A stretch of DNA of 64,000 nucleotides from a virus (Duplodnaviria; Caudoviricetes), in the IMG/VR virus record IMGVR_UViG_3300014059_000005, positions 32,001-96,000 of that record; one strand, 5' to 3'. The notes under the pieces were generated by a model. The model was given only the letters and a program-made list of their open reading frames with translations, was not told the origin of the DNA and ran no database searches. A program made the translations under genes and the position numbers. The first letter of the stretch is position 1. Each line of letters starts with the position of its first letter. Below, one piece after another: positions 22,604-39,279 of the stretch.

Positions 22604-24463
22604 ATGATCCAGATCAACAAGCCGCCCCACCAACGCATCCTCGAACTGGGCGGTGGCGAGCATCCCAATCCAGCCTCCGATGTCCGCGTGGACATCCGTC
22701 CCATCGAGGGCAAGGTAGACTGGGTCCAGGACTTCGAGAACGAGCCTCTGCGATGCCAGTCCGGGGAATTCGATTGTGTCTATTCCCATTTCTGCCTGGA
22801 GCACATTAGCTACACCAAGCTGCCCGCCCTCTTGAAGGAGATCCATCGGGTCTTGAAGCCCAATGGTAAGGTGCTCATCGCCGTTCCCAATACCCTCAAG
22901 CAGATCGAATGGCTCCTGTCCCACCCCGAGGGCTGGGATGGTAAGGACTTCTTCACGGCCTCCTCGGAACTGCTATTTGGTTCCCAGACCTATGATGCCA
23001 ATGCCCACAAGTGCTTCTTTACCCCAGAAGCTCTGGCCAAACTCTTCCGAGAAGCTGGGTTCGATCACGTCCGCACCACCGCCTACGGTGAACGATCGAC
23101 CGACATGGTGCTCGATGCAGTCAAATTGGCACCAGGCAGCACCTCATCTACGACACAGTCTACAACACCAACTACTGTATCAACTACCGCACCAATTACT
23201 CCGCTCACCGAGGATGCCGTGGTCCAGGCCACGGAGAGCCTCAACGCCCTCATGGGGAGCAAGGACACCCCACAATCCCCCGCTCCAACGAGCATCGCTT
23301 CTCTTACGAGGGAGGAGATGTTCGACAAGCACTACTTCAACGGCGGTGGCAAGGTAGGTGGTTATGCCCGTGAGGGCTACTGGGACTATCCAGTCCACAA
23401 TATCACCGCCCAGCACGTTCGGGTCCGTCGCCCCCAATCTGTGCTGGAAATTGGCTGCGGTAGGGGCTATATCCTCAAACGCCTCCAGGATTGGGGAATT
23501 CCTGTCTGCGGTCTGGAAATCTCCCGGCATGCCTGGATGACCCGCGTCATCGATCCCATCCTCAACATCGATATTTGCACCGAGAGATGGCCAATCGAGG
23601 ATCAGGCCTTCGATATGTCCTTCTCGATGGCAACCTTCGAGCACATTCCTGAGCAGTACATTGCTCATGTTCTGTCGGAGTTGAGGAGGACGTGCAAGTC
23701 GCATTTGCATGGTATCGACTTCGGCCAGCATGACGATGGCTTTGATAAAACGCATGTAAGTCTTTTACCACCAACAACTTGGGTCCAGAAGTTCCATGAG
23801 GCGGGCCTGACCAACTTCGAGATTCTGGACAAGGAGTCTCTGGAACGGGGGGACATGCCCCAGGAAGTCTTTGCCGATGATGGCAAGATCAAGCTGGCGG
23901 TAGGCACCTTCACTGTAATGAGTCATTACGGTTGGCAGAACATCGACGTTCACGATCTCATGGGCTTTGCCCAGACGCATGGCTATCGCTACCACCGGAT
24001 CGATGCTCGCAATGGTCTACCCTGGAAGACCTCCGAGGTCTCTCTGATCTCCTGCTCGCACATGCTGGAGCATCTGAGTTACCGAGAGGGTCTGGGACTC
24101 CTGCGTGAGTTCCGCAGGCTCATCAAGCCCGATGGTGCGGTGCGGGTCGCGGTCCCCAATGCCCAACTCCTGCTCGAACACTACGAACGCCGTACTCTGG
24201 ATGAGTTCATCCCTATCAGTGATGGAGTCGAGAACGCCACCACCCAAATGCAGAAACTCTGGGCACTTCTCAATGAGGGCCACCAGGCTACCTATGACAG
24301 GGAGACCCTCTGCCAGCAGTTCGAGGACGCTGGATTCGTGCCCACGGTAGCAGCCTTCCGATCCTGTCTCCAGCATCCAGGTTCCCGACAGATCCTGCGG
24401 GAGACCCTGGACATGCACCCCAGTCTCTCGCTCTATGTGGATGCCGTTCCCAAAGTTGTCTGA
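22604..24463 (+). CDS. Multi-domain class I SAM-dependent methyltransferase (three tandem domains)
   Basis: ILELGGG...HFCLEH...EIHRVLKPNG; VLEIGCGRG...TFEH; HMLEHL...EFRRLIKPDG. Confidence 0.85.
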   Translation: MIQINKPPHQRILELGGGEHPNPASDVRVDIRPIEGKVDWVQDFENEPLRCQSGEFDCVYSHFCLEHISYTKLPALLKEIHRVLKPNGKVLIAVPNTLKQIEWLLSHPEGWDGKDFFTASSELLFGSQTYDANAHKCFFTPEALAKLFREAGFDHVRTTAYGERSTDMVLDAVKLAPGSTSSTTQSTTPTTVSTTAPITPLTEDAVVQATESLNALMGSKDTPQSPAPTSIASLTREEMFDKHYFNGGGKVGGYAREGYWDYPVHNITAQHVRVRRPQSVLEIGCGRGYILKRLQDWGIPVCGLEISRHAWMTRVIDPILNIDICTERWPIEDQAFDMSFSMATFEHIPEQYIAHVLSELRRTCKSHLHGIDFGQHDDGFDKTHVSLLPPTTWVQKFHEAGLTNFEILDKESLERGDMPQEVFADDGKIKLAVGTFTVMSHYGWQNIDVHDLMGFAQTHGYRYHRIDARNGLPWKTSEVSLISCSHMLEHLSYREGLGLLREFRRLIKPDGAVRVAVPNAQLLLEHYERRTLDEFIPISDGVENATTQMQKLWALLNEGHQATYDRETLCQQFEDAGFVPTVAAFRSCLQHPGSRQILRETLDMHPSLSLYVDAVPKVV

Positions 24464-24961: not shown

Positions 24962-25215
24962 ATGATCTCATCGCCCACGGGATCCCACTGTCCAATGTGT
25001 GGGTAGTTCTTGGCATCTTCTGCCGCGTAGGGGCGGAATTCGGCCTTCCAGACGGCCGCCCTTCCCGTCTCGGACTCCAGTACCTTATCCCTGGCAAGTC
25101 GCAATGCCTCCCCCAGGGAGGGGACCAGTCTCTTGCGCAGGATCGATGTGTCCTCGGGATATCTCCTGTGGACACACCATTCCACACACCACCTTACCTC
25201 TCCAACGACCGGCAT
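24877..25215 (-). CDS. Hypothetical protein with EEIP-repeat acidic tail
   Basis: ATG at 25215 after GGAG; convergent overlap with 24473-24961. Confidence 0.55.
   Translation of the reverse strand: MPVVGEVRWCVEWCVHRRYPEDTSILRKRLVPSLGEALRLARDKVLESETGRAAVWKAEFRPYAAEDAKNYPHIGQWDPVGDEIIYEDIPEDILEEIPEEIPEEIPEELVLR
24891..24958. repeat. Imperfect 12-bp tandem repeat (TCTTCTGGGATC-like)
   Basis: About 5 copies read directly. Confidence 0.8.
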
Positions 25216-25443
25216 GGTTATCGTCTCCGTCAGGAGTGAATTGTCGCGGTTCCACCCACGCAACAACTATGCCATACTTTTCGGGAAAGTCAAATCGGGG
25301 TGACATCCCCCTTTCGACTTTCACTGGTCGATTATTCCTCCGAAGGGAATAATGCCAGTTGTGTGATCTGCAAGGGATCGACGACACAAAGACGTGTCCC
25401 GATCGCTTTTACCAAAACCTCCTACTACTGGAGTGGCAAACCA

Positions 25444-25905
25444 ATGCCTGAACGTCAGCCTACGAAGAACGCACTCTTCATCGCCGGCACCAACCTGGAG
25501 TCCGGCACCCCCAATACTGGCCAGATCCAGTACACGCTGGGCGGAACCAAGACCTATACCCGGTTCTCGGGCACCGTGGGTCCGGATACCGCGATCTGGG
25601 TGGGTGCGGGACGTCTGGACTCTCTGTACCTGATCCCGTCCGCCGACCAGGCGGCATCGGGCAAGACGATCCTGTTCTACGACTCGGCCGTCGTTGCCTC
25701 GGGTGGTCCTATTGCGGCCTCCGGCCACAAGGTGCTGGCCGGTATCCAGATCGGCGGTACTCCACAACCTGCCAATTTGTCGGGCCTCATCAACTACGGG
25801 GGCCTGGTCCAGTGCGGCTTCCCGTTCAACTCCGGATTGGTGGCCACCACCGCCTCCGGGCAGTTCGGGTTCTCCGTCAGCTTTACCCCAGTTGTCAGCG
25901 GTTGA
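25444..25905 (+). CDS. Ser-Gly-rich virion (decoration-like) protein
   Basis: GGAG RBS; GAGRLDSL...FYDSA...G.PFNSGLV motif. Confidence 0.65.
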   Translation: MPERQPTKNALFIAGTNLESGTPNTGQIQYTLGGTKTYTRFSGTVGPDTAIWVGAGRLDSLYLIPSADQAASGKTILFYDSAVVASGGPIAASGHKVLAGIQIGGTPQPANLSGLINYGGLVQCGFPFNSGLVATTASGQFGFSVSFTPVVSG

Positions 25906-25996
25906 TCGGCTCATTCTTCCCGGTGTGGGGTAGGTCCGGCCAGCCTCCCCACGCCGTTTATACGCTGTTTCCTAGCCCGATACCGGACTCCCTGGG

Positions 25997-28900
25997 TTGT
26001 CTATGGACGCTATCACGCTACTGGGATACCTGACCAAAGACCTCCAGCAAACGCAGGAGTCCCCCGAGGCCAAAGTCAAGTATGGCTATCTGGGAGCAAT
26101 TCTCCCCCCACGTCTTGCCAACCAGATCACCGATTGGGTCCGCAAGAATATTCCGAACTCCGTTCTCGGTGCTGGTGGCAGGGAAACCACCCCTCATGTG
26201 ACTATCAAGTATGGGTTCATCCAGTCTGGCCCGGAGACCCTGCGGGCGGTCCAGCACTATCTCTCCACAGTCCGACCCTTCCCCATCAAGTTGCTGGGGG
26301 TGTCTCTCTTCAAGGGCAACCCCGATGGGGATGTCCTCAAGATCGATGTGGAGTCCCAGGAGTTGCGGAGACTCAACCGGGAGTTCTCTTCGCGATTTCG
26401 CTGCCATGACAAACATCCCCACTACCATCCGCATCTGACCCTGGCTTATGTCGATCCAAGGCATTCGGGAATGCTGGTCCGCAGGGTGCCCTATTTCCTC
26501 CCTACCGAGGTGATGATCGATACCCTGGAGTTCTCCACTCCCGAGAGGGAGAAGACCCACATCCACCTCTCCCGTGGTCTCAAGGCCATGTCCTATCTGA
26601 ATAACCTCACGGGTGGTGCCCTGGTGGGAGCCAGGGTCCCTGAGAGGCTCCAGGAGAAGAAGCGATCGAAGTTGCTCTGGGAGCGCAAGGCCCTCAAGAG
26701 CCCCCAGGCTGGCTCCCGGATGCACGAGGAGAAGCAGATGTCCGAGGAGGACGTCAAGGCTTCTCTGATTGCTGATGTCCTGGCGTCGGTCCTGACTCCA
26801 AATCCATCCGGGCAGAAGTTCCTGACTGGATATCTGGTGAAAGGATATGAGGAGAAAAAGGACAGTAGGGGTCGTCGATATTGCTATGACCCCGATAAGA
26901 AGCCTTCTCGGATACCTTGCAGAGTAAAAGATGAGGCAGAAAAGACCGGAGGCGGAAATCAGCAGACTCCACAGCAACAAGCTCCCGCCCAGGGAGCCCA
27001 AGGACCGGCCCAGGACCCGACCACCCAGGGGCAAGAAGCGGCCCAGGAAGCCCAGCAAGGGGCTCAGGAAGGCCCCCAGGATGCCCCACAAGGCGAGCAG
27101 AAGCAAAAGAGACGCTACGCTCGCCGTGGCTCCAACAAGGTCACTCTGGACGACGCCAGGGCCAAGATCGCTGAGGTCAAGGCGAAAATCGCCGAACTCA
27201 AGGGCGAGCCCATCCCCGAGGAGTTGGTGAACGGTCTGATCCAGACTCTCTGGGACATGACCGTGGTCAACCTCAAGGCCCTCCGCAAGGAGGTCGGTGC
27301 CAGGACTGCTCCCAGGAAGCCGGAGTTGATCGATAAGATCAAGAACGTGGTTGCCGTACCTGCTGAAGAGACCCCAGCGGAGGAGCCAGTAGCAGAACCG
27401 ATGGCAGAGGAAACTCCGACTGAGGAAACTCCGACTGAGGAAACACCAGAAGAAGTTCCTGCTGAGGAACCTGTAGCGGAAGAAGTTGCGGAAGAGACCC
27501 CAGCAGAAGAAGTCCCAGTTGAGGAAACTCCCGCAGAACCCGAGCCTGGCAGTTTCGAGGATGATAGTGACCTTACGGGTGAAGAGACCGAAGCAGCCCA
27601 AACCGAAACCCCAGAAGCAGTCGAAGAGGTAGCTCCGGAAGCGACCCAAACTCCAGAGCCGACTCCAGAGCAATCTCAGGAGACCCCCCAAGAAACTCCT
27701 CAAGAACAGATCCAGGAGGAGACTCAGGAACAGGAGACACCCACCGCCCCACGCGAACCCAGAAAGCTGGATCGCAAGGAAGCAGCTGGGCTCATTAACA
27801 AATATGGGGTGGGTAAGCCCGGAGCGAATACCCCGCTCCACAAGGAAGCCCCCGACGTGGCCATCCTTGTGGACGACATCGCCAACGCGGTTGCGGATGG
27901 GGAGCGGCCCGCTGGCAAGGATGTTCGGAAACTCATGGATGTCGTCGAGGAAGCTGCCTACGATCCCGATGGCTGGGGCAAGCTGGGCAATCGGGAGACC
28001 TATGAGGATCTCCGAGACCTGGTGCTCACCGCCAGCAAGAATCGCTATGAACCCACAGATCCAGTGGAGAAATCCGGAGAGGTAACTCCCCGGGGAGAAA
28101 CCAAACCCAAAGGACCCGTTGCCGATCGGTTTGCGACCAAGGCCACCGATATCAAGCCCGTGGATGCTGCCCGAGCCGATGAGATCGCCAAGAAGTATGG
28201 TATGCGACAGGGATCCAAACTCAGATCCCGTGATACCATGATGGCCACCGCTGTCGAGGGTCTGGCCCAGGCGGTCAAACAGGGTGGACAGGCCAATGCC
28301 AGGTTGATAGAGAAAGTCACCGAGCAACTGGACGCCGCTGCCCGTGACGAGACGGGTTATGGTGTATTTGGTGATCAGGAAGCCTACGAAGCGATCCGGG
28401 ATCTGGCGGTCCAGGCTTCTGGTGGTGCCTACGAGCCCGTCGCCCCCGTTGAAAAATCGCAACCCACCACCGAAGAGAGAGTGGATCTTCAGGACGATGT
28501 TTTCGATGAAGATGTTGGTGATGAGACCGAGGACATCGGTAGTGGAAATGAAAAGCAGGATAAACTGGTCCGGGAATACTCAAAGCGAGAAGCAGAAAAA
28601 GAAGCAGAACTTCAAAGACGTGAGCAAGAAGCTGGAATTGGATCTGGGACACCTGAAGGCCGAGAGTGGCTGCAATATCAACACAAGGGAGAGAAATCCC
28701 CCCCACAAGAGGCAAGCACCATAGATGCCGCTGCCGCCAAAAAACTACTAAAGATTCTGCGGAGCAACGCAGAGACTGGAATTGAGCCACAGACTGCTCT
28801 AGGTCTTCGTGTGATGGCTCGTCAGATCGCTGAGGGGCGTGAGGTTTGGGATATTGGCCGCAAGGATCTGGACAATCTGATTCAGCAGGCTACCGATGAT

Positions 28901-30790
28901 CCAGACGGGTATGGTCCTCTGGGCAATGCCGAAGCCTACCAGGCAGCTATCGATCTATTGCATACTGCTACCAATGGGAAATACACAGGCCCCGAAGTTT
29001 CTCCGGATCGTCCATCTCCACGAGTAAACAAGAGCGAGAGCATAACGGCTCAGAAATTGGATAAGAGAGATACCCAGAAACTTCGGGATAAATATGAAGA
29101 AGGATCGGATCCGCGAAAAACCTATGAATCTGGATTGTCACCTTCCGGAACTAATAAGTATGTGGCCAGAAGAATGGCGGCTCTGGCAAGGGCTGTACAA
29201 GAAGGGGAGTTGCCGAATAACGAAGTTTTGAACAAGGTGCCCCGTTGGATCCAAGAAGCTGCTGATGATCCCTATGGCTATGGGGCATTTCGCACCGAGG
29301 AAAACTACCAGAACGCGATCAACCTCCTGCATACTGCCACCGGAGGAGCCTACAAAGGTCCAGAGGGAATCGAAAAGACCCCCCAGAAAGGCTCCGTGGA
29401 GGCAGCAAGAGAAACCACCACCGAGAAGCCCACCACCGACACCGAGGCTCTCACTCCCGAAGATGTGCAGCAACAGGAGGTCGAGCAGGAGACTGCTACT
29501 CCTAGCAACGAAACTCCGAAAACTGCATCGCAGAATTCGCAGCCACGACCCACACTGAATAATGCGTCATCTACGAGCCCGGCTGCCAAGAAACGTCTAC
29601 CAGATCCCCAGAAGGATTTCCCTGGGTTCATTCGGGACATCCAGTCGATTGCTGATGGTTTGGATAGGGGTTGGGGTCCCAACAAGGTATACATTTCCGA
29701 TGTCTACAACGCTTTGAAAGAGGCGAATCCTGGACTCACCCCAGAGTATTTCAAGTGGGCGCTCAAGGTTGCCAATCAGAGGGGATTGTTAAGTCTTAGC
29801 CGTGCCGATCTGGTTCAGGCCATGAATCCAGAAACGGTGAAAGCAAGCGAAATCAATATGAGTCCTGGAGCATCTGCTCACGAATCTACGGGATATGGTG
29901 CCACTACATCGCATTTCATCCTTTCCTCCTCTACGGATAGGTTGCAGCCAAAGGACATCGTAGACGGCGAGATGTATGAACAAGGGAGAGGTAATGAGAA
30001 GGGATCTCGCGAAGACATAGCATCGGTATATTCCGAGATGCAAAAGAAAGAGACGCAAGATACGGATAAACCACGGGTCGAGCCCAACAAGAGCAATCTG
30101 TCCAGATTCCGCAGGAATAAGGTAGGAGAAGGAGGTCTCAAGCCTCCCAGAATCGGTAGCAAGCAACCAGCAACGGCCCAGGAAGCTACTGGTGGAACTC
30201 AGGAGACCACCCCCGAACAGCAGTCACAGCAGCCTGTGGGCAATGAACCTGTTGCATCCGAAGCAGTCAGCAAACCCACGAGCCCCCGATCAGCAACCAA
30301 GACAACCTCCAAACCTTCTACCTCTACCGTCGCAAAAGCTTTCCGCGATCTGGACACCGAGAACTTCAACCAGGTCTCCCTGGACAAACTCCTGGCCAAG
30401 ACTGGATATACCCCAGAGCAACTCCACGGGGTGGTTCGGGATATGGTCAAGCGGGGACTGCTGACCACCCAGGGTCCAGAAGGGAGACATGGCCTGTCCC
30501 CCGCAGAGCGAGAGGCCATGATCCCACCTGGTGATGATTTCATGCAGGGGGTGATGTACGTCTCCGTGCCCACCGGCAAGGAGGAGGAATTCACCAGGAC
30601 TATCAAGGAAGGCAAGGAAACAGGTCCGACCAAGGGCGATGCCGTAGCGACTTCTGGGGAGGGGGTGGAATCCTTCGATTGGGGTTCTGAAGGATCGGCA
30701 CAACCAACCAGGAAAACAGAGACTCCCAAGCGAGCCGTTCGGGACAGGGAGACCGTTACCCCCAAACCTCCCAGAATCCGAAAGAAGTAA
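25997..30790 (+). CDS. Giant head-associated polyprotein: N-terminal 2H phosphoesterase (Acb1/gp57B-like), acidic linker, four helical repeats, two winged-helix-like domains
   Basis: PHVTIKYG and YHPHLTLAYV HxT pair; EETP repeats; four D..G(W/Y)G repeats; lies upstream of the prohead protease. Confidence 0.8.
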   Translation: MSMDAITLLGYLTKDLQQTQESPEAKVKYGYLGAILPPRLANQITDWVRKNIPNSVLGAGGRETTPHVTIKYGFIQSGPETLRAVQHYLSTVRPFPIKLLGVSLFKGNPDGDVLKIDVESQELRRLNREFSSRFRCHDKHPHYHPHLTLAYVDPRHSGMLVRRVPYFLPTEVMIDTLEFSTPEREKTHIHLSRGLKAMSYLNNLTGGALVGARVPERLQEKKRSKLLWERKALKSPQAGSRMHEEKQMSEEDVKASLIADVLASVLTPNPSGQKFLTGYLVKGYEEKKDSRGRRYCYDPDKKPSRIPCRVKDEAEKTGGGNQQTPQQQAPAQGAQGPAQDPTTQGQEAAQEAQQGAQEGPQDAPQGEQKQKRRYARRGSNKVTLDDARAKIAEVKAKIAELKGEPIPEELVNGLIQTLWDMTVVNLKALRKEVGARTAPRKPELIDKIKNVVAVPAEETPAEEPVAEPMAEETPTEETPTEETPEEVPAEEPVAEEVAEETPAEEVPVEETPAEPEPGSFEDDSDLTGEETEAAQTETPEAVEEVAPEATQTPEPTPEQSQETPQETPQEQIQEETQEQETPTAPREPRKLDRKEAAGLINKYGVGKPGANTPLHKEAPDVAILVDDIANAVADGERPAGKDVRKLMDVVEEAAYDPDGWGKLGNRETYEDLRDLVLTASKNRYEPTDPVEKSGEVTPRGETKPKGPVADRFATKATDIKPVDAARADEIAKKYGMRQGSKLRSRDTMMATAVEGLAQAVKQGGQANARLIEKVTEQLDAAARDETGYGVFGDQEAYEAIRDLAVQASGGAYEPVAPVEKSQPTTEERVDLQDDVFDEDVGDETEDIGSGNEKQDKLVREYSKREAEKEAELQRREQEAGIGSGTPEGREWLQYQHKGEKSPPQEASTIDAAAAKKLLKILRSNAETGIEPQTALGLRVMARQIAEGREVWDIGRKDLDNLIQQATDDPDGYGPLGNAEAYQAAIDLLHTATNGKYTGPEVSPDRPSPRVNKSESITAQKLDKRDTQKLRDKYEEGSDPRKTYESGLSPSGTNKYVARRMAALARAVQEGELPNNEVLNKVPRWIQEAADDPYGYGAFRTEENYQNAINLLHTATGGAYKGPEGIEKTPQKGSVEAARETTTEKPTTDTEALTPEDVQQQEVEQETATPSNETPKTASQNSQPRPTLNNASSTSPAAKKRLPDPQKDFPGFIRDIQSIADGLDRGWGPNKVYISDVYNALKEANPGLTPEYFKWALKVANQRGLLSLSRADLVQAMNPETVKASEINMSPGASAHESTGYGATTSHFILSSSTDRLQPKDIVDGEMYEQGRGNEKGSREDIASVYSEMQKKETQDTDKPRVEPNKSNLSRFRRNKVGEGGLKPPRIGSKQPATAQEATGGTQETTPEQQSQQPVGNEPVASEAVSKPTSPRSATKTTSKPSTSTVAKAFRDLDTENFNQVSLDKLLAKTGYTPEQLHGVVRDMVKRGLLTTQGPEGRHGLSPAEREAMIPPGDDFMQGVMYVSVPTGKEEEFTRTIKEGKETGPTKGDAVATSGEGVESFDWGSEGSAQPTRKTETPKRAVRDRETVTPKPPRIRKK
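27361..27745 (+). repeat. Low-complexity EETP/EEVP coding repeats
   Basis: GAGGAAACTCCGACT-like 15-bp units. Confidence 0.75.
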
Positions 30791-31037: not shown

Positions 31038-33110
31038 TTGATGCGAACCTCCATCTTGCTATCCCGTGGTAGATCAGCAATTCCCCCCTCTCTGGGGAGA
31101 TCGGGGATACTCCACGCCAGGAGCAAGAAACTCGTCCCACCCAATCCTCCAGGGATCAAGCCCTTGCCAGGAGGTCCGGTTTCGGCACCCATGCCGAACA
31201 CCGCTCCGGGTAATCCCAATGACCCCAACGAGCAAAAGCGCCGATCGGAGATGATTGCCACGATCCTTTGGTACTCGCTGGCGGATAAAGGAACGCGCAC
31301 TACCGAACAGGCCCCGGCAAAAACTACCCCGAAGACTCCTACCAAGACTCCTACCAAGGGCCTGATCATCCGCACCAAGGAGATCATTCAGGACGTAGAC
31401 AGCATTGGTCGGCAGTATTGTGTGGATACCAATCAAGGGGGGTTGCGGGTTCCGTGTCCGGGAGTAGTGGAGGTCCCGGAGAAGAAGGAAAGGGTCAGGA
31501 ACAATCGGGTCTATGAGATGATTGCTGCATTGGGAGAACTACATACGGGTAATCCCAGTGATCGGAAGGTGGATTCCGTATTCAATCGGCTGGACAAACT
31601 CAATGTGGCCGAACTCCAAAAAGTCGTGGATTTCTATGCGGGCCGACCTGGGGCTACTCTTCCCCCCAAGGATGTCAAGGATCAATTAACGGAAGCCGTT
31701 ACCAAGAAGCGGACCAAGCCCTATACCGCCAAGATTCCAGATCCTACCCCGGATGAACCACCTATTCCTCTGCAAGATCCGGGCAAACCTCCACCACCCG
31801 AGGCTGAGGAGACTCCACAACCGCCTCCACCTCCAGAGCCCGAAGCGGAGACTCCTCCAGAGGCCCCAAAACCTCCCAAGGAAAAGAAACCTAGGACCAG
31901 GAAGCCCAAAGCTACCAAAGCCCCCACAACAAAAGCAGATAGGACTGGGAGTCCTCGGAACAAAACAGAGGCTATTCATGACATTGTGGATATTGTTACA
32001 AGAGGAGAGCAATCGACTTCACCCGCCCCGGTGACTTCCTCGGAGACATCTTCCACAGAATCAGATACAGAAAAAACGCCCAATACCTCTCAGGAAGGTG
32101 TCTCCATATCGGAGCCATTTGAGGACGAGGGAGACTTTACTGGAGAGGGTGGCGAATCTGAGGTAGCCCAACCAGAGACAACCAAACCCGAAGCACCTAA
32201 ACAATCCACACCCCCTCCAGACAACTCGAATCTGCCCCTGCCAGATGAATTCCAACATCTGGAGGGTGAATCCTCTGGAGAGCAATCACAGACCCCCACG
32301 AAGAAGCCCGTTAGCAAGGGCCAGCAGATTCGGGACATGCTCAAGGGAATGTCTACCGCAGAAGATGAGTTGTTGGACATCGATCTCATAAATTCCAGGG
32401 AGATACAGATCCGGGATGCCATACCCAAGGGCAAGATCCCTCCCAAGGAGGTGCTCGCCGAACTGACGTCTCTGGAACAGGACAGAAAACTGGCCCTACG
32501 GGCAATGGTCGAAAAGAACAAGAGGGCACATCAAACTCTGTTCGAGTCCCTGAAAGGGGACTCGAAGATGTCCCTGGAGGCCAGCACGGGGAGCAAGAGA
32601 GTAGACGTGTCTATAAATTCCGGTTTGGATTTTGTGAACAAGGTGTTTACCGGAGCACCGACATCTCCGAAATACAAAGTCAACAAGGGGTATGATTCAC
32701 GTCCAGGTTATTCCAACGGCAAGATTTTCATGCCGCACATGACTAATCCCGAGAATTCGGTTCACGAGATCGGCCATTTCTTGGAGGATAATGTACCGGG
32801 GGTTTTGGACGCCACCCGGGAGTTCGCATCCAGAAGGTTCGGAGACGAAAAGCCTCAGCGTCTGGTAGACGTATACCCAGACGCGGGCTACGACGCCATA
32901 GAAATGGGTCGCAAGGACAATTTCGACAAACTGCTGCCAACGACGGCTTATTACTTGGGCAAAGAGTACCCGGATGGTACGGAGATCCTGTCCATTGGTC
33001 TGGAATATCTGTACAGGGATCCGGTGTATTTCGCCCAGAAGGACCCCGATTATTTCGACTTCATCGTCGGAATCCTGGACGGCAGCGGGCGCAAGAAGAA
33101 GTCTACCTAA
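31038..33110 (+). CDS. Head-associated protein with C-terminal zincin metallopeptidase domain
   Basis: HEIGH motif plus downstream EILSIGLE...DPDYFDFIVGIL; Pro/Glu-rich linker. Confidence 0.75.
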   Translation: MMRTSILLSRGRSAIPPSLGRSGILHARSKKLVPPNPPGIKPLPGGPVSAPMPNTAPGNPNDPNEQKRRSEMIATILWYSLADKGTRTTEQAPAKTTPKTPTKTPTKGLIIRTKEIIQDVDSIGRQYCVDTNQGGLRVPCPGVVEVPEKKERVRNNRVYEMIAALGELHTGNPSDRKVDSVFNRLDKLNVAELQKVVDFYAGRPGATLPPKDVKDQLTEAVTKKRTKPYTAKIPDPTPDEPPIPLQDPGKPPPPEAEETPQPPPPPEPEAETPPEAPKPPKEKKPRTRKPKATKAPTTKADRTGSPRNKTEAIHDIVDIVTRGEQSTSPAPVTSSETSSTESDTEKTPNTSQEGVSISEPFEDEGDFTGEGGESEVAQPETTKPEAPKQSTPPPDNSNLPLPDEFQHLEGESSGEQSQTPTKKPVSKGQQIRDMLKGMSTAEDELLDIDLINSREIQIRDAIPKGKIPPKEVLAELTSLEQDRKLALRAMVEKNKRAHQTLFESLKGDSKMSLEASTGSKRVDVSINSGLDFVNKVFTGAPTSPKYKVNKGYDSRPGYSNGKIFMPHMTNPENSVHEIGHFLEDNVPGVLDATREFASRRFGDEKPQRLVDVYPDAGYDAIEMGRKDNFDKLLPTTAYYLGKEYPDGTEILSIGLEYLYRDPVYFAQKDPDYFDFIVGILDGSGRKKKST

Positions 33111-33450: not shown

Positions 33451-33654
33451 ATGGCTGATAACAAGCCTACCCAAGCTGAGATCGAGGAACAGTTCCGCGA
33501 GCAGCTTGAAGACCTGGTCCAGATCGGTACGAAGCTGGCAGCGGTTTGCTCCTCGGTAACGGAACTCGTGGAGCTAATGGAACTGGCCAGGACCAATGAC
33601 GGTCAACTTCGTTTGATCCTCAGTCAAGTTCTGCCACAGGCAACAAAAAAATGA
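33451..33654 (+). CDS. Hypothetical protein
   Basis: 67-aa ORF with ATGA overlap into the protease. Confidence 0.6.
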   Translation: MADNKPTQAEIEEQFREQLEDLVQIGTKLAAVCSSVTELVELMELARTNDGQLRLILSQVLPQATKK

Positions 33655-36563
33655 CTGCTCGTTCGGACATCTTCAGGACTCTCGATGGTCGGGGCAAGAG
33701 CCTCGATTCCACCCGGTGGTCCTACAAGCTGGCCGAAAACAGCTATGGCATGGACGTAGCCTATGCCGATAATCTCCAGATCAACGAGAAGGAGATGTCG
33801 GCCTGGATTCCGATCGCTGATGGGAATCGACGAGATGGTCAGGGTGATGTGCTCCTGGTCACTGGGATCGACACATCCAGGCACGCGGCCAATCCTCTGG
33901 TCTTGTTGGATCATGGAAAACACATCGCGTTGCCCATTGGTCTCATGGAGACCCGGGACACCAAGCAGTACACTTTTGCCATTGATCCTCTGACCAAGAC
34001 TGCTGGTGGTCGCTGCTACTTCTACCAGGGCGGCAACTCAGACTATCTGCCAACGAGTTCCGATTCATCCGGTAAGGCATTCCTGCCTAATAAATCCCAG
34101 CAGTTCGAGCATGCGGTCCTCTGCGAACAGCTGTTCGACATGATGGCCAAGCGTCTCCTGCGATCGGGGTCCATTGGTTATCAGGTCCAGGAAGCAGAAA
34201 GAATCCCCGCTGACTACGCTACAGGAATCCCCCAGGGATTGTTCCTCAAGCGTGTGCTCATGCTCGAAGGCTCTCTGGTGGTCCTGCCTGCCAACCAGGA
34301 CACTGTGCGCAAGGCCCTGGCCATGCCCAGGATCTGTGGCCGTCCCCCTTGTGAGATGCTGGTCAAATCTCTGTCTCCCTACGCCAGCAAACCCAACCCC
34401 GTGGTAATTTCGGGTTTTTCTCCAAAAATCGACAAAACCCTGAGCAATACCCCAACCAGCGAGGTCAGAAAGGTGGCTACCAAAGCACTGGATGGTATCC
34501 GCATGAAATACCGTCAGACCAAGCGGTTGAAGCGCAAATTGAAGTCGTCCAGCAAGGGGGCGGCAGTCGTCCACATCGAGCGCAAGGACATGGACCGTGC
34601 CCGTGAGGAGTCCGGCAAACTGGGCCTCAAGTTCTCCCACATGGGGACACACTCCAGTGGTCGCGAGAAGGTCAAACTGATTGGTGACGACGACAACATC
34701 GATCACGTCGCCAAGATGTTTGGCAAGCCCATGAGTTTCGGGAAGTCGGCGAAGCCTCTGACCAAAAAGAAATCACTCCCTGGGGGGAATATGAAGCAAG
34801 TCAATCACAAGACCAAGGCTCTGCCCCCGGAGGATCCCATGATGGACGATCCGATGGGTGCCCCGATGGATGACCTGGGCGGTATGGAAGAGCCGATGGA
34901 GGACGAGGTCTACTCAGCACAGGTTCTACGGATGATCCACAAGGATCACCAGATCCTGATGGAAGAGTACGACAAGGCCCTCAAGATGCTCGAACACGAG
35001 CACATCCGGGGCTTCATGGAAAAACTCATGACGTCGATCGACTCCCTCCTTACCGAGGTGGAGTCTCTGTTCCAGAAGTTCCATCCCGATCTCCCGGCCC
35101 TGGACGGGGCGATGGACAAGTCTCTCGATGAAGATCAGCCCCTCGACGACGAGGCCCTCGATCAGGAAATCGACGACGAGATGCTCGACGAGGCGGCAGA
35201 CGAGGAAGTAGTGGATGACCTCATGGACGAGGATGTCATGGAGGAAGGTGACCTCGACTCTGCCGACGACTCCGGGACCGAGGAAGTCTCCGAGGATGCC
35301 CCTGAGACAGACGATGTGGAGGCCATCGAGGAGGCCGAGCCCGATTCCACGGACGATCGGGACGGTGAGGAGCCCACCTCCGAGGACGTGGTCCAGGGCA
35401 TGAAGAAGGATCGCGGGATCGGTGCCAAGGGCAAGAAGTCCTTGCCCCAGAAGTCTCTGCCTCGCAAGTGCTCCAAGTGTGGGCCTGGGTGCAAGTGTGC
35501 CGAGTGCCAGAAGAAGTACAAGGGCGACAAGTGCATGAAGGAGCCGAATGCCCGCAAGCCAGGACCATGTCCCGGTGAGCATGACAAGAAGCCTGGTGGC
35601 GGTGCAGCGATTCCTGGTCGGGATGGGGCCAAGCCCCCGCGTGTTGCTGCTTCCAGGCCCGTGGACGGCTCCATCGATATCCCCGAGGCTGACCTGCCCA
35701 AGCCCCGACGCCGTCCCGGCAACGCGGGAACCGTCAATCCCAGGATGGGTGGTCAGCAACTGGAAGCCGACGACGTGACCACTGCTGATGGAGAAATGGC
35801 CGAGACCACGGACCACGAGAACCCCCAGGGCATGCTCTCGCATGACCTCAGTGACGATGAGCGACATGTCGTCCACCGAGCCGGCAAGTTCCTCAATCAC
35901 ACCTCGACCAATCAGGATTGGACCGAGGAGTCCCGGATGAAGGCGTACTACCACCACAAGTCGCTGGAGCCCATCTACGGAATGATCGAGCGGGATGAGG
36001 ATCACCAGCCCGTGGACGACAAGAAGACAGGCCAGAAATCCATTCCTGGCGATAGCCAGTGGGTCCAGGAGGAGGGTCAGGAAGCCGATCATGGTGGTCC
36101 CGACCATGCTCATGGGTCTCATGAGCATCAGGAAATGCACCCTGCTCGTATCAAGTGCATGGGTGCCGGCACCTTCCTGGGAGCCCTGTCCAAGGAGAAG
36201 GCCTTCGGCGAGGCCCACCGAGAGCAGGCCGGCATGCTCGCCAAGGAACTCGAATCTCTACACTCCGAGCACAACGAGGAACAGGAAACTCCTGACCACG
36301 ATGAGCAGGACAAGGAGACCGAGGAGATCCCAGGAGATACCTCAGATACCTCTGGGGATCCCACCACCCAGTATGGTGGGGACAACCCTGGCCCAGATGC
36401 CGCAGAGTCCGATTCCCTGGAGCAGGAGACCCCCGAGCCAGGTGAGATCGGCGAGAAGGGTAATCACAAGCAGAGCACCAAGGAACTGGCCCGCGTGCTC
36501 AGGGACCGCAGCAAGCGGCTCCAGGACATCCAGCGTCGGCTTACTTCCCTGAACTTCAACTGA
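33651..36563 (+). CDS. HK97-type prohead protease fused to a long acidic scaffold-like region
   Basis: RDGQGD...NPLVLLDH...PIG...SIGY...LEGSLVVLPANQD; immediately upstream of the major capsid gene. Confidence 0.85.
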   Translation: MTARSDIFRTLDGRGKSLDSTRWSYKLAENSYGMDVAYADNLQINEKEMSAWIPIADGNRRDGQGDVLLVTGIDTSRHAANPLVLLDHGKHIALPIGLMETRDTKQYTFAIDPLTKTAGGRCYFYQGGNSDYLPTSSDSSGKAFLPNKSQQFEHAVLCEQLFDMMAKRLLRSGSIGYQVQEAERIPADYATGIPQGLFLKRVLMLEGSLVVLPANQDTVRKALAMPRICGRPPCEMLVKSLSPYASKPNPVVISGFSPKIDKTLSNTPTSEVRKVATKALDGIRMKYRQTKRLKRKLKSSSKGAAVVHIERKDMDRAREESGKLGLKFSHMGTHSSGREKVKLIGDDDNIDHVAKMFGKPMSFGKSAKPLTKKKSLPGGNMKQVNHKTKALPPEDPMMDDPMGAPMDDLGGMEEPMEDEVYSAQVLRMIHKDHQILMEEYDKALKMLEHEHIRGFMEKLMTSIDSLLTEVESLFQKFHPDLPALDGAMDKSLDEDQPLDDEALDQEIDDEMLDEAADEEVVDDLMDEDVMEEGDLDSADDSGTEEVSEDAPETDDVEAIEEAEPDSTDDRDGEEPTSEDVVQGMKKDRGIGAKGKKSLPQKSLPRKCSKCGPGCKCAECQKKYKGDKCMKEPNARKPGPCPGEHDKKPGGGAAIPGRDGAKPPRVAASRPVDGSIDIPEADLPKPRRRPGNAGTVNPRMGGQQLEADDVTTADGEMAETTDHENPQGMLSHDLSDDERHVVHRAGKFLNHTSTNQDWTEESRMKAYYHHKSLEPIYGMIERDEDHQPVDDKKTGQKSIPGDSQWVQEEGQEADHGGPDHAHGSHEHQEMHPARIKCMGAGTFLGALSKEKAFGEAHREQAGMLAKELESLHSEHNEEQETPDHDEQDKETEEIPGDTSDTSGDPTTQYGGDNPGPDAAESDSLEQETPEPGEIGEKGNHKQSTKELARVLRDRSKRLQDIQRRLTSLNFN

Positions 36564-36675: not shown

Positions 36676-38133
36676 ATGGCAACAGCCCCCAACAAGGACC
36701 TTTCCTCGATCGTGGCCGAGCAGGGCAAGCAGATCGATGGTCTGGTCAAATCCCTGGACACCGTGGTGACGCGACTCAAGTCCACCCCGGCACATGGGAT
36801 GCCAACCCCCACCTCTGTCTTCGGAACTCCCAACGTCCGAAGCGGTGAGAACATCATGGGAAGCCGTGGGTTCTCCTTCATGAAAATGCTGGGCATGATC
36901 ACGGGTGCTGTGCCCCGCGAGCAGGCCAAGATCGAACTGGACGTTCACAACCGTCTGCACGATGTCTTCTGCAAGAACCTGGGCGATGCCGGTTACTCCT
37001 ATGGTGGCTCGGGCCACCCCGGTGTCAACAAGTTCATGGCCCCTTTGGCCAGCGGTTTCTTCCAGGAAGGTCTCGTCAACCGAGACTTCCGCAACGAGAT
37101 GAAGTCCCTGGTCGCCGCAGGTGGTGACGGGGCCGATCTCGACCACATGAAATGGATCCGCACCAAGCAGTTCGAGTCGATGGGGTATAGCTCCAAGGCC
37201 CTGTCCTGGCTCAACGAGTTGACGGGTGGTGCCCTGGTGGCTCCCCCCGAGATGGGCGAACTCATCGAACTGCTCCGTAACAAGGAAGCCCTGGTCAACG
37301 CCGGTGCCCGAGTCGTTCCCCTACCTCCGCAGGGACGCCTCAAGTACCCACGGCAGACGTCTGCTTCCCTCACCTACTGGGTGGGTGAAAACACGGCGAT
37401 CACCGAGTCCTCGGTTGGGACTGGCGAGGTGACGCTCCAGGCCAAGAAGCTGGCGGTCCTCATCAAGGCCCCCAACGAACTCATCCGCTTTGCGTCCCCT
37501 GCCGCAGAGGCCCTCCTCCGTGACGACATGACCAAGTCTTTGGCCCTGGGCCTGGACCTGGCCGGTCTCGAAGGTCTGGGTGGCGATACCCGGCCTCTGG
37601 GTATCATCAACCAGCCTGGCATCAACCGGATCACCTCTAGCTCTCCTGGGGCCAACGGTGACGCCCTGGTTGGCCAGGATGTCTACCGTATGATCGCGTC
37701 CATCGAGGAATCGAACGCCGAGATGGAAGGCTGGATCATGCGGCCGAAAACTCTGTACCGCTACTTCCAGCTTCGCTCGGACGCGGTGGCCCAGGGTGAT
37801 TCGGCCGGCATGTTCCTGTTCAATCTGGTCCGCGAGGCTGGGGACTCCATGAGCGCTCCGTCTCTGGGAGGTTTCCCGGTCACGAAGTCCACCCAGGTCA
37901 GCCAGGTCCAATCGAAGGGGACTTCCAGCAATCTGACCTACATCACCTTTGGTATGTGGTCGGACCTCCTGATCGGGATGTTCGGTGCGATCGAGTTTGC
38001 CGCGACCAGCCTGGGTGATACCAGCTTCGTGGCGGATCAGACCTGGATCCGGGCTTTGGTGTCTGCGGACATCGCTCCCCGGCACCCCAGCGCCTTCGGC
38101 GTAATGTCGAATCTGATCGTCGTTCCGAGCTAA
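36676..38133 (+). CDS. HK97-fold major capsid protein
   Basis: GGALVAP...IELLR...YWVGE...VTLQAKKLAVLIKAPNELIR...G.GG..RPLGI...RHPSAF. Confidence 0.95.
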   Translation: MATAPNKDLSSIVAEQGKQIDGLVKSLDTVVTRLKSTPAHGMPTPTSVFGTPNVRSGENIMGSRGFSFMKMLGMITGAVPREQAKIELDVHNRLHDVFCKNLGDAGYSYGGSGHPGVNKFMAPLASGFFQEGLVNRDFRNEMKSLVAAGGDGADLDHMKWIRTKQFESMGYSSKALSWLNELTGGALVAPPEMGELIELLRNKEALVNAGARVVPLPPQGRLKYPRQTSASLTYWVGENTAITESSVGTGEVTLQAKKLAVLIKAPNELIRFASPAAEALLRDDMTKSLALGLDLAGLEGLGGDTRPLGIINQPGINRITSSSPGANGDALVGQDVYRMIASIEESNAEMEGWIMRPKTLYRYFQLRSDAVAQGDSAGMFLFNLVREAGDSMSAPSLGGFPVTKSTQVSQVQSKGTSSNLTYITFGMWSDLLIGMFGAIEFAATSLGDTSFVADQTWIRALVSADIAPRHPSAFGVMSNLIVVPS

Positions 38134-38238: not shown

Positions 38239-39279
38239 ATGCCGAAAGGCCGATGGAGCCAATCCGAGATGCGTTACCTGCGAGAGCACTGGTCTACAGA
38301 CGGATCCAAGGCGGTTGCCACCGCTCTTGGGCTCGACTGGCAGAACGTGCAACGCAAGGCGAAGCGGATGGGATTGGTTGCCAACAAAGAATCCCGCTAC
38401 AAGCGAAGTGGTGCCACCCTGGCGTCCCACAACTGCTCTAGTGACACCAACTACTTCACCAGGGACTGGTCCCCAAATCTGGCGTATATCGTCGGATACA
38501 TCTTTGCCGATGGCTGCATCTCCAAGAACTGGTACAGTCTGTGTTTCTTGTGCCACAGCAAGGACGAGGAGATCCTTGTAGCGATCCATAGGGAATTGAA
38601 CGTCGCCACGAAGATCCACAGGGATCCAGCAAGGGAATACGGAGGCCGGAAAAACGGACCCAGGACATACTTCAGCGTTAGCAATAAACGGTTGGTGTTG
38701 TCCCTGCAAGACCGCTTCGGGCTAGTCCCCCAGAAGTCCGATCTCGATCTGCCCATGCCGGAGATCCCGGACGCCTACGTCGGACATTTCGTCCGTGGCT
38801 ATTTCGACGGCGATGGACATATTGCCATGTCGAAAAAACACAACGGGGGTAATTTCAGTTTCGTTGGGACCGAGAAGTTTGTTCGGCAGATGTCTTCCGT
38901 TATTTGTCGTTTGATTGGCACCAATAGAGTTTGTGTGAGTTGTCAAAAAGGACTGTGGTCGGCCGCATGGACCCTACGGGACTCTTTGAAGAAGATCCAC
39001 AAGCTGATCTACCCAGAGGGAGACTACATCTACCTCTCTAGGAAGCGGCAGGTGTTCGATTCTCTGCTCCAGAGGGAAGTCAAACCCGTAGCGGTGCCCT
39101 GGACCCAGAAAGAGGAGGAATTCCTCCGTAAGTACTACAACGATGTTCCCTTTGGTAAGATTGCAAAGGCTCTGGGACGTTCCCAGTCCTCAGTATGCTA
39201 CAAGGTGGGGATCCTGGGTCTCGTAGCTGCTCAGAACAAGCCCAGGAAGAACCATGTGACAATGGAACCAATTACCTAA
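38239..39279 (+). CDS. Free-standing LAGLIDADG homing endonuclease with terminal HTH-like modules
   Basis: LAYIVGYIFADGCI and HFVRGYFDGDGHI motifs; W..E..YLR..(W/Y)...A.ALG repeats at both ends. Confidence 0.9.
   Translation: MPKGRWSQSEMRYLREHWSTDGSKAVATALGLDWQNVQRKAKRMGLVANKESRYKRSGATLASHNCSSDTNYFTRDWSPNLAYIVGYIFADGCISKNWYSLCFLCHSKDEEILVAIHRELNVATKIHRDPAREYGGRKNGPRTYFSVSNKRLVLSLQDRFGLVPQKSDLDLPMPEIPDAYVGHFVRGYFDGDGHIAMSKKHNGGNFSFVGTEKFVRQMSSVICRLIGTNRVCVSCQKGLWSAAWTLRDSLKKIHKLIYPEGDYIYLSRKRQVFDSLLQREVKPVAVPWTQKEEEFLRKYYNDVPFGKIAKALGRSQSSVCYKVGILGLVAAQNKPRKNHVTMEPIT

Follow-up and report, generated by a model that had tools for sequence, protein, structure and literature searches.

A copy of the capsid maturation junction behind a 2H phosphoesterase domain in a giant phage head-module protein: a candidate label for docking, cleavage and injection

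Why does a giant protein that is encoded in the head-gene block of a tailed phage carry, directly behind its N-terminal 2H phosphoesterase domain, a copy of the maturation junction of the phage's own major capsid protein (MCP)? This question is raised by a 64,000-nucleotide (nt) stretch of DNA (the window), which comprises bases 32001-96000 of the 139,665-bp IMG/VR phage record IMGVR_UViG_3300014059_000005, a record that as a whole is rated complete (CheckV). The answer that we favor, and that on the basis of sequence comparisons appears probable, is that the copied stretch, here termed the tag, serves as a capsid-docking label as well as a cut site for the head protease, by which the 2H enzyme would be released within the head so that it can be injected. 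The elements on which this answer depends are the following (aa, amino acids; ORF, open reading frame):

26003..30790, plus strand: giant head-module protein, 1595 aa from ATG (ORF list and translation; the open frame begins at TTG 25997, which gives 1597 aa)
26078..26572, plus strand: 2H phosphoesterase domain, residues 28-192 of the giant protein (Pfam, AlphaFold, Foldseek)
26582..26635, plus strand: capsid-junction tag, K196 and a copy of the first ~15 mature MCP residues (MCP match; disordered)
33651..36563, plus strand: predicted prohead protease (residues ~40-245) with a long acidic scaffold-like tail, 970 aa (motifs and fold; nt 33651-34400 modeled)
36676..38133, plus strand: MCP, 485 aa, with an N-terminal scaffold (delta) domain of ~174 residues (Pfam, phrog)
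37195..37242, plus strand: MCP maturation junction, K174 and the start of the N-arm, template for the tag (HK97 alignment)

Residues 196-210 of the giant protein (26582-26629) agree with MCP residues 174-188 (37195-37242) at 12 of 16 positions, a match that in a single BLASTP comparison has an E-value of 2e-4, and when all six frames of the window and of the entire 139,665-bp genome were scanned, the motif was detected at these two sites only. A sequence-only reading of this DNA, made before the present analysis, had already pointed to this resemblance, and it holds as the sole such pair in the 139.7-kb genome. The same reading had placed the other boundary of the enzyme at a T-K-D-L motif (residues 13-16), and this part had to be given up: the motif lies in a disordered, unconserved leader, the first 24 alignment columns are without consensus, and the residues do not fit the K-x-[L/M]-S that begins the tag. 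At the DNA level, the tag and the MCP junction have an exact 19-nt block in common, and 9 of the 12 shared residues use the same codon, which hints at a recent gene conversion in this genome, on top of the protein-level selection that is seen elsewhere (see below). In the AlphaFold model, residues 197-214 have a predicted local distance difference test (pLDDT) score of <50; the tag is thus predicted to be disordered and should be accessible.

Is the tag a peculiarity of one genome? An exhaustive HMMER search with residues 1-234 against 1.84 billion representatives gave 3825 matches at E <= 1e-3, most of which sit inside proteins of 500-3400 aa, and the best 150 of these 3825 2H homologues were surveyed for the tag. 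The pattern K-x-[L/M]-S-x6-G-G-A-L-V-x-P-P was recovered from 68 of these 150, as a single copy in 67 and as two copies in one (homologue P0011, residues 387-440, where the members of the tandem pair are 29 residues apart). Where the 2H domain is N-terminal, the tag comes directly past it; where the domain is internal, the tag can be found up to 1380 residues into the protein, deep within proteins of 1000-3000 aa; and in complete stand-alone 2H genes (203-246 aa, with downstream neighbors on their contigs), it is located near the C-terminus and followed by 25-45 residues. A position count over 67 tags revealed nothing conserved before the Lys and strong conservation over the 17 residues after it, with the Lys itself occurring in 66 of the 67, though the search pattern required Lys or Arg. 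A search for further tag carriers among 5.8 billion proteins with residues 186-330 returned the query alone, as this region is too short and too diverged. In many untagged 2H polyproteins, the domain ends in a recurrent L-S-F-L-P-x-x-G-x-K stretch, which possibly represents a further junction ending in Lys that belongs to another protease or capsid lineage.

Does the tag change together with the MCP of its own phage? Both the tag and the MCP junction were available from nine genomes (eight in an earlier version), and all 362,880 re-pairings were evaluated. Tags share 90 identities with their own MCPs, as compared to 82.6 +/- 2.6 over all permutations (p = 0.0025), and the residue after the Lys agrees between tag and MCP in seven of the nine genomes (A/A in four, S/S in one and D/D in two; p = 0.004). 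At shared residues, the codon identity amounts to 0.35 within and 0.30 between genomes. In the eight genomes other than the one studied here, this value is that of the background, but the amino acids continue to match and to co-vary. As codon identity within genomes is barely above that between genomes, the match is kept by protein-level selection and not by recent DNA copying. Gene conversion as a general cause of the match was rejected on these grounds; it is possible for this genome alone.

That the copied segment of the MCP is a maturation junction is indicated by comparison with HK97. The MCP has a Phage_capsid domain (PF05065; 110.8 bits, 1e-31) at residues 184-477 and matches phrog_617 at 3e-41 and the solved MCP of phage R4C (8gta) at 2e-18. 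The domain is preceded by 183 residues, and its Pfam start at residue 184 falls inside the motif. For HK97 gp5, the cut has been located at K103/S104 within a flexible linker (PMC10275583), and a BLASTP alignment with gp5 brings K103/S104 to within one residue of K174/A175 and G-S-L-I-x-P opposite G-A-L-V-A-P. In the R4C structure, the chain begins with the G-G of the motif, and exactly 10 residues before this point the R4C gene encodes an Arg. The mimicry of the capsid junction, which had been suspected from a single pair of sites, can thus be described as a family-wide and selected trait that co-varies with the own MCP and lines up with K103/S104 of HK97.

The position of the Lys at a module boundary is indicated by contig L010, which has the protease and the MCP but no 2H domain. 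The body gene upstream of its protease (405 aa as called by the Joint Genome Institute, JGI) starts with Met and then the tag, with Met where otherwise the Lys stands. With the corresponding part of a 649-aa homologue of the order 2H-tag-body, this body shares 51% identity, and its residue 2 is opposite the residue after the Lys. According to this alignment, the enzyme module ends exactly at the Lys and the body begins exactly after it. So precise a loss of the 2H domain shows how a constant carrier can gain or lose effector modules.

Which enzyme could cut at the tag? Just upstream of the MCP gene lies the 970-aa gene, whose first ~245 residues are ~50% identical among 19 relatives, with H88, S174 and E206 being invariant. 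These three residues fall on the motifs of HK97 gp4, in the gp4 order (hhalign, low probability). When the model of this region was compared with 48,161 chains by VIA-align, the best match was the T4 gp21 protease (5jbl; Z 8.4, root-mean-square deviation 3.3, 135 residues), followed by the proteases of human cytomegalovirus (HCMV) and varicella-zoster virus (VZV) with Z 5.0 and 4.8, well above unrelated rows. A phmmer search of the protease against PDB sequences gave no match, and no S77 or ClpP family match was found in the whole genome. Judged by the modeled fold, the 970-aa gene is a prohead protease with an assemblin fold, and it is the only head-protease candidate of the genome, so that the prohead protease invoked by the sequence-only reading has a plausible counterpart here. 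In contig L021, the tag sits after the protease domain itself. At the end of the protease domain of our phage, K239-S240-L241 (34365-34373), which is invariant in the 19 relatives, fits the K-x-L of the tag and is a candidate self-cleavage site that would free the protease from its scaffold-like tail.

The enzyme that would be released is a sound member of the 2H superfamily (LigT-like) with intact catalytic residues. Both HxT motifs that had been read from the DNA are present in the translation (H67-x-T69 and H146-x-T148), and all four residues are invariant across 30 homologues. The AlphaFold model, which was built on these 30 homologues, has a pLDDT >94 over residues 28-192. Pfam assigns 2_5_RNA_ligase2 (PF13563; 55 bits, cut-off 27) and LigT_PEase (PF02834; 31.1 bits, cut-off 23.3). 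Foldseek matches LigT (5ldm, 2e-7), the phosphodiesterase of Burkholderia phage BCSR5 (2e-6) and Acb1 of phage FBB1 (7t26, 2.5e-5), as well as YjcG and plant CPDase.

More difficult is the assignment to Acb1, as which the domain had been described before. In favor of it, the nearest solved sequence relatives are indeed Acb1 proteins: a single-sequence search of solved proteins found only two BCSR5 entries named Acb1 (E = 0.02), and a clade profile ranked Acb1 9q2g (2.7e-6) and Acb1 7t26 (2.5e-5) before YjcG (6e-5). However, the domain misses the Pfam Acb1 cut-off (PF23474; 17.7 bits, cut-off 27), with AKAP7 being under its cut-off as well, and the suggested Foldseek comparison did recover Acb1 but gave the better score to LigT. 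Among the 2H clades, the profile thus ranks Acb1 first, whereas fold scores slightly favor LigT, and membership in Acb1 is not demonstrable for this domain. We found no paper on the BCSR5 phosphodiesterase.

What could be the substrate? Nucleotide immune signals, as in the case of Acb1, are our first suggestion, at slightly less than an even chance. A role against the cyclic oligonucleotide-based antiphage signaling system (CBASS), as for Acb1, is only a lead that sequence relationships provide. The processing of RNA ends or 2',3'-cyclic phosphates is somewhat less probable but a serious contender, and the same tentative grade applies to the wider view that the enzyme is not of the Acb1 type at all and instead processes RNA ends, acts as an RNase on host or defense RNAs, or hydrolyzes cyclic phosphates derived from NAD or ADP-ribose. 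This would agree with the generic nature of the best Pfam families, with Acb1 being under its cut-off, with fold matches to LigT, YjcG and plant CPDase that equal or beat those to Acb1, and with 2H domains being fused to ART and NUDIX in relatives, as these domains handle NAD and ADP-ribose. Both RNase and signal-degrading roles are also given for the 2H domains of polyvalent proteins in the literature (PMC5512222). On the other hand, the clade profile puts the two Acb1 structures first among all solved ones, an RNA ligase partner is seen in none of the loci, and relatives encode nearby, upstream of their glycosyltransferases, a small gene with an Acb2/Tad1-type hairpin domain (L002, 2086-2307; L028, 3155-3379; L032, 7108-7488). 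Such sponge genes near the loci of relatives suggest that signaling defenses exert pressure on this clade. A search for Acb2/Tad1 in the genome of our phage gave no match, but control genomes gave none either.

Based on these data, we propose the following mechanism. The 16-18-residue stretch would be a portable label that copies the maturation junction of the MCP, i.e. the Lys and the first mature residues of the N-arm. Through the interactions that the junction of the MCP has with the protease and/or with the inner shell, the tag would dock the giant protein in the assembling procapsid, where the S78-type prohead protease (33651-34400) would cut after K196. The product of this cut would be a soluble head protein, the 2H phosphoesterase of ~22 kDa, which could be injected together with the DNA, and the ~1400-aa body would keep an N-terminus that resembles a mature capsid subunit. 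We infer docking and cutting from five properties of the tag: it is near-always present as a single copy, is conserved after the Lys only, is used at N-terminal, internal and C-terminal positions, co-varies with the MCP and marks by its Lys a module boundary. That docking may be involved in addition to cutting is suggested by the restriction of conservation to the C-terminal side of the Lys, and by the presence of tags at the C-terminal ends of stand-alone 2H proteins and at the N-terminus of a body. Packaging and injection would be in agreement with the location in the head module with conserved synteny, and with the ART, NUDIX and ATLF-like domains that occur in the same protein in relatives. 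A more far-reaching generalization is conceivable and rather tentative: the tag could be a general portable address label for HK97-type heads, in which an N-terminus that is free or generated by the protease mimics the mature N-arm and so attaches any passenger to the inner shell or the protease, with the part before the Lys being released into the lumen for injection.

Several points weigh against the docking-and-cutting mechanism. The co-variation rests on nine genomes, a small sample whose members are mutually related. Conservation that is restricted to the prime side and extends over ~18 residues is unusual for a simple protease site. The tagged architecture was found in no cultured phage of the collection searched, in which 2H matches are distant and untagged (Tunturi_5 gp321, Maribacter phages, huge-phage contigs). 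The protease remains under the Pfam cut-off for Peptidase_S78 (PF04586; 14.7 and 17.5 bits, cut-off 21), and Foldseek alone gave no significant match with the protease model. The cut position is taken from the HK97 alignment at ~21% identity, and R4C begins only at the G-G, 10 residues further on, where either the first ordered residue of its chain or the true end may lie. Finally, an in-frame GTG 22 codons upstream is a possible alternative start of the L010 body gene.

How else could the tag be explained? It could in principle be a plain cleavage site, with packaging being achieved by another element, such as the Cys-pair module that is described below, acidic repeats or DNA binding. The position and the Lys, which equal those of the MCP junction, as well as the module boundary at the Lys would be well accounted for, and the Cys-pair module is indeed shared with a neighboring head protein that has no tag. 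However, multidomain proteins of 2000-3000 aa then would be expected to have one site per domain boundary, and they nearly always have a single tag; complete stand-alone 2H genes keep the tag with just 25-45 residues behind it; the tag of L010 is located at the very start of the protein, where there is nothing to cut; and the lack of any conservation N-terminal of the Lys contrasts with 17 conserved residues after it. A plain cleavage site is for these reasons unlikely. Still somewhat less likely is the opposite alternative, a docking peptide that is never cut and that retains the whole protein by binding to the HK97-fold shell from within or to the protease, much as cargo-loading peptides do in encapsulins. 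Prime-side-only conservation and the use of the tag at N-terminal, internal and C-terminal positions are what one would expect of such a peptide, and in HK97 the N-arm residues settle, after scaffold removal, in the place where the scaffold sat (PMC10275583). Against an uncut peptide stand the Lys, which is near-invariant (66 of 67 tags, with Lys or Arg required by the search pattern), and the loss of the 2H module exactly at this Lys; moreover, the MCP junction from which the tag is copied is cut in HK97. Recombination or gene conversion between the genes of the capsid protein and the giant protein could also have left a remnant without function, for which the exact 19-nt block and the shared codons (9 of 12) of this genome would speak; this is highly improbable in the light of 68 tags in 150 diverged homologues and of the other eight genomes, whose amino acids match and co-vary at background codon identity.

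The docking-and-cutting mechanism leaves a large body protein to be considered, together with a neighbor that shares one of its modules:

26852..26926, plus strand: Cys-pair module of the giant protein, with a second copy at ~31395-31460 in the 690-aa head protein (regex scan)
31038-33110, plus strand: 690-aa protein with a zincin motif at its end (phrog_33618, 1e-23; also a 'minor head protein' PHROG)

The database copy of the giant protein, P0005, begins at residue 3, i.e. at ATG 26003. The 2H enzyme and the tag are followed by a basic linker, the Cys-pair module and a SAP/HeH-like helix pair. Acidic linkers come next, then a repeat of ~130 aa in four copies and a C-terminal part that contains two modules resembling each other. 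The 2H domain is the sole recognizable domain in the protein of the window, and equivalents in relatives combine 2H with ART, NUDIX, ATLF or DUF5661 domains in one protein, so that at the family level several unrelated effector domains are found in one polypeptide among virion genes, as is characteristic of polyvalent proteins. The Cys-pair pattern (acidic-x-G-R-x-x-C-aromatic ... V/I-P-C) is located ~90 residues past the tag in the giant protein. By regex it is present in 31 of the 150 homologues, typically 45-50 residues past the tag when the tag follows an N-terminal 2H domain, and in other relatives, L010 included, an alternative Cys module (G-x-C-K/E-x-G ... G-C-V/I-P-A) substitutes for it. 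It may be a second anchoring or DNA-binding element. The 690-aa protein is largely disordered and rich in Pro, Glu and Thr, contains the zincin motif H-E-x-x-H in its C-terminal ~130 residues, to which the phrog matches also apply, and has no tag. It may be a processing peptidase of the polyvalent-protein type; that its zincin domain is the processing enzyme of this system is unlikely, as several relatives without such a gene still keep the tag.

The locus belongs to a head-gene block on the plus strand. In the 5' part of the block, a sigma factor gene, a triple methyltransferase gene (22604-24463) and a 162-aa gene precede the giant ORF (25997/26003-30790), and in the 3' part there follow a 79-aa gene, the genes for the 690-aa and 970-aa proteins, the MCP gene, a homing endonuclease gene, and connector and tail genes. 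On the contigs of relatives, the order is methyltransferases, a ~160-aa gene, the 2H protein, small genes, protease-scaffold and MCP, and in every relative that was fetched the giant gene is kept in this position, with the triple methyltransferase and the ~160-aa gene before and the protease-MCP pair after it. The triple methyltransferase is a protein of ~620 aa with three tandem S-adenosylmethionine (SAM)-methyltransferase domains that, with the ~160-aa gene, is always upstream of the 2H protein (equivalent positions in L002, L003, L028 and L030-L035). Further upstream there are glycosyltransferase and sugar-modifying genes, and together these upstream genes suggest a modification of virion or DNA. 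A gap of ~1 kb (24962-25996) separates the 162-aa gene from the giant gene, while the gap in relatives is <=100 nt; the two ORFs in it (25300-25905 on the plus and 25321-25914 on the minus strand) gave no family match. Directly 3' of the MCP gene, a homing endonuclease of the LAGLIDADG_3 type with a Myb/GcrA-like C-terminus is encoded (38239-39279), and the homing endonucleases of relatives are of the HNH type (L003, 17174-17833 and 19255-19791; L028, 19192-19719), so that the site after the MCP gene looks like a hot spot for mobile endonucleases. Scans with a protease profile found 5 viral loci and 17 metagenome loci, the latter mostly short; an IMG/VR search via the 690-aa neighbor gave zero close relatives. 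Most contigs of relatives come from soil or groundwater samples.

Why would such a label matter? Injected proteins act before any phage gene is expressed and therefore are a first line against host defenses, and outside of T4-like and giant phages they are hard to recognize from sequence. If docking and cutting occur as proposed, the tag would provide a rule for finding such cargo in HK97-type phages, and as a natural handle it would allow foreign proteins to be loaded into shells of the HK97 fold. A pre-made enzyme of the Acb1/LigT superfamily would be delivered, which would change our view of when and how CBASS-like signaling defenses are countered. Should the label be portable in general, it would constitute a tailed-phage counterpart of the cargo-loading peptides of encapsulins and a sequence rule by which the injected effectors of a large uncultivated phage clade could be listed.

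How does this compare with known systems? In phage T4, the internal proteins IPI-III and Alt carry a capsid-targeting sequence that is removed by the prohead protease gp21. In both cases a short peptide sends proteins to the interior of the head and is clipped by the capsid-maturing protease, although in our case this is a proposal, and the cargo would be injected to act on the host; T4 Alt is an ART, and ART domains occur in the relatives studied here. The T4 signal, however, is an N-terminal leader of ~10 residues that an S77 enzyme cuts after Glu, and it does not reproduce any capsid sequence. The tag lies within the protein or on the C-terminal side of the enzyme, and cleavage is predicted to follow a Lys. 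By its motifs, the protease here is of the HK97/S78-like kind, no S77 match having been found in the genome, and what the label reproduces is the junction and N-arm of the MCP, with which it co-varies. Packaged cargo that is trimmed by a protease is as such already known from T4 and giant phages (PMC9026906, PMC10052503).

A second comparison concerns the polyvalent proteins of phages and conjugative elements (Iyer et al. 2017, PMC5512222). Their genes lie among those of the virion, and the proteins, which are large and have many domains, are predicted to enter the particle and to be injected. Their components include 2H, ART and NUDIX-type domains, with the 2H domain proposed to be a degrader of nucleotide signals or an RNase. 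The same large multidomain build, location among virion genes and 2H, ART and NUDIX-type components are found in our family. For processing, PMC5512222 invokes a zincin peptidase embedded in the protein, and for anchoring a fusion to MuF or portal, which differs from the mechanism suggested here, and term searches of the paper detected no mention of a capsid maturation junction copy. As to Acb1 itself (T4 gp57B family; FBB1, 7t26/7t27; BCSR5, 9q2g/9q2y), the 2H fold and the two HxT motifs are shared, but Acb1 proteins are small and free-standing (140-165 aa), whereas here the domain is part of a giant protein and under the Pfam Acb1 cut-off. To our knowledge, Acb1 proteins are not known to be packaged.

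With HK97, the system has in common a cut, here a predicted one, after a Lys that stands 9-10 residues before G-x-L-V/I-x-P, at the start of the N-arm and in a flexible linker. Duda, Oh and Hendrix reportedly described in 2013 (J Mol Biol 425:2765, cited in PMC12749128) that the HK97 gp4 protease has an encapsidation region, and a protease that is carried into the prohead by a non-catalytic region would resemble what is proposed here. We know of no other HK97 protein with a copy of the junction, whereas here a cargo protein has received such a copy, and so has the protease of some relatives (L021). In the literature we found no paper that describes this tag, nor the G-G-A-L-V motif in capsids. 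The cargo-loading peptides of encapsulins, finally, are short C-terminal peptides that bind to the lumen side of an HK97-fold shell, are movable between cargos and remain uncut. The tag is likewise a short cargo peptide, for which shell binding is proposed by analogy, but encapsulin peptides do not copy the shell protein, as the tag copies the MCP. While the kind of packaged cargo is known from the T4 capsid-targeting signals and the polyvalent proteins, the variant described here appears to be new.

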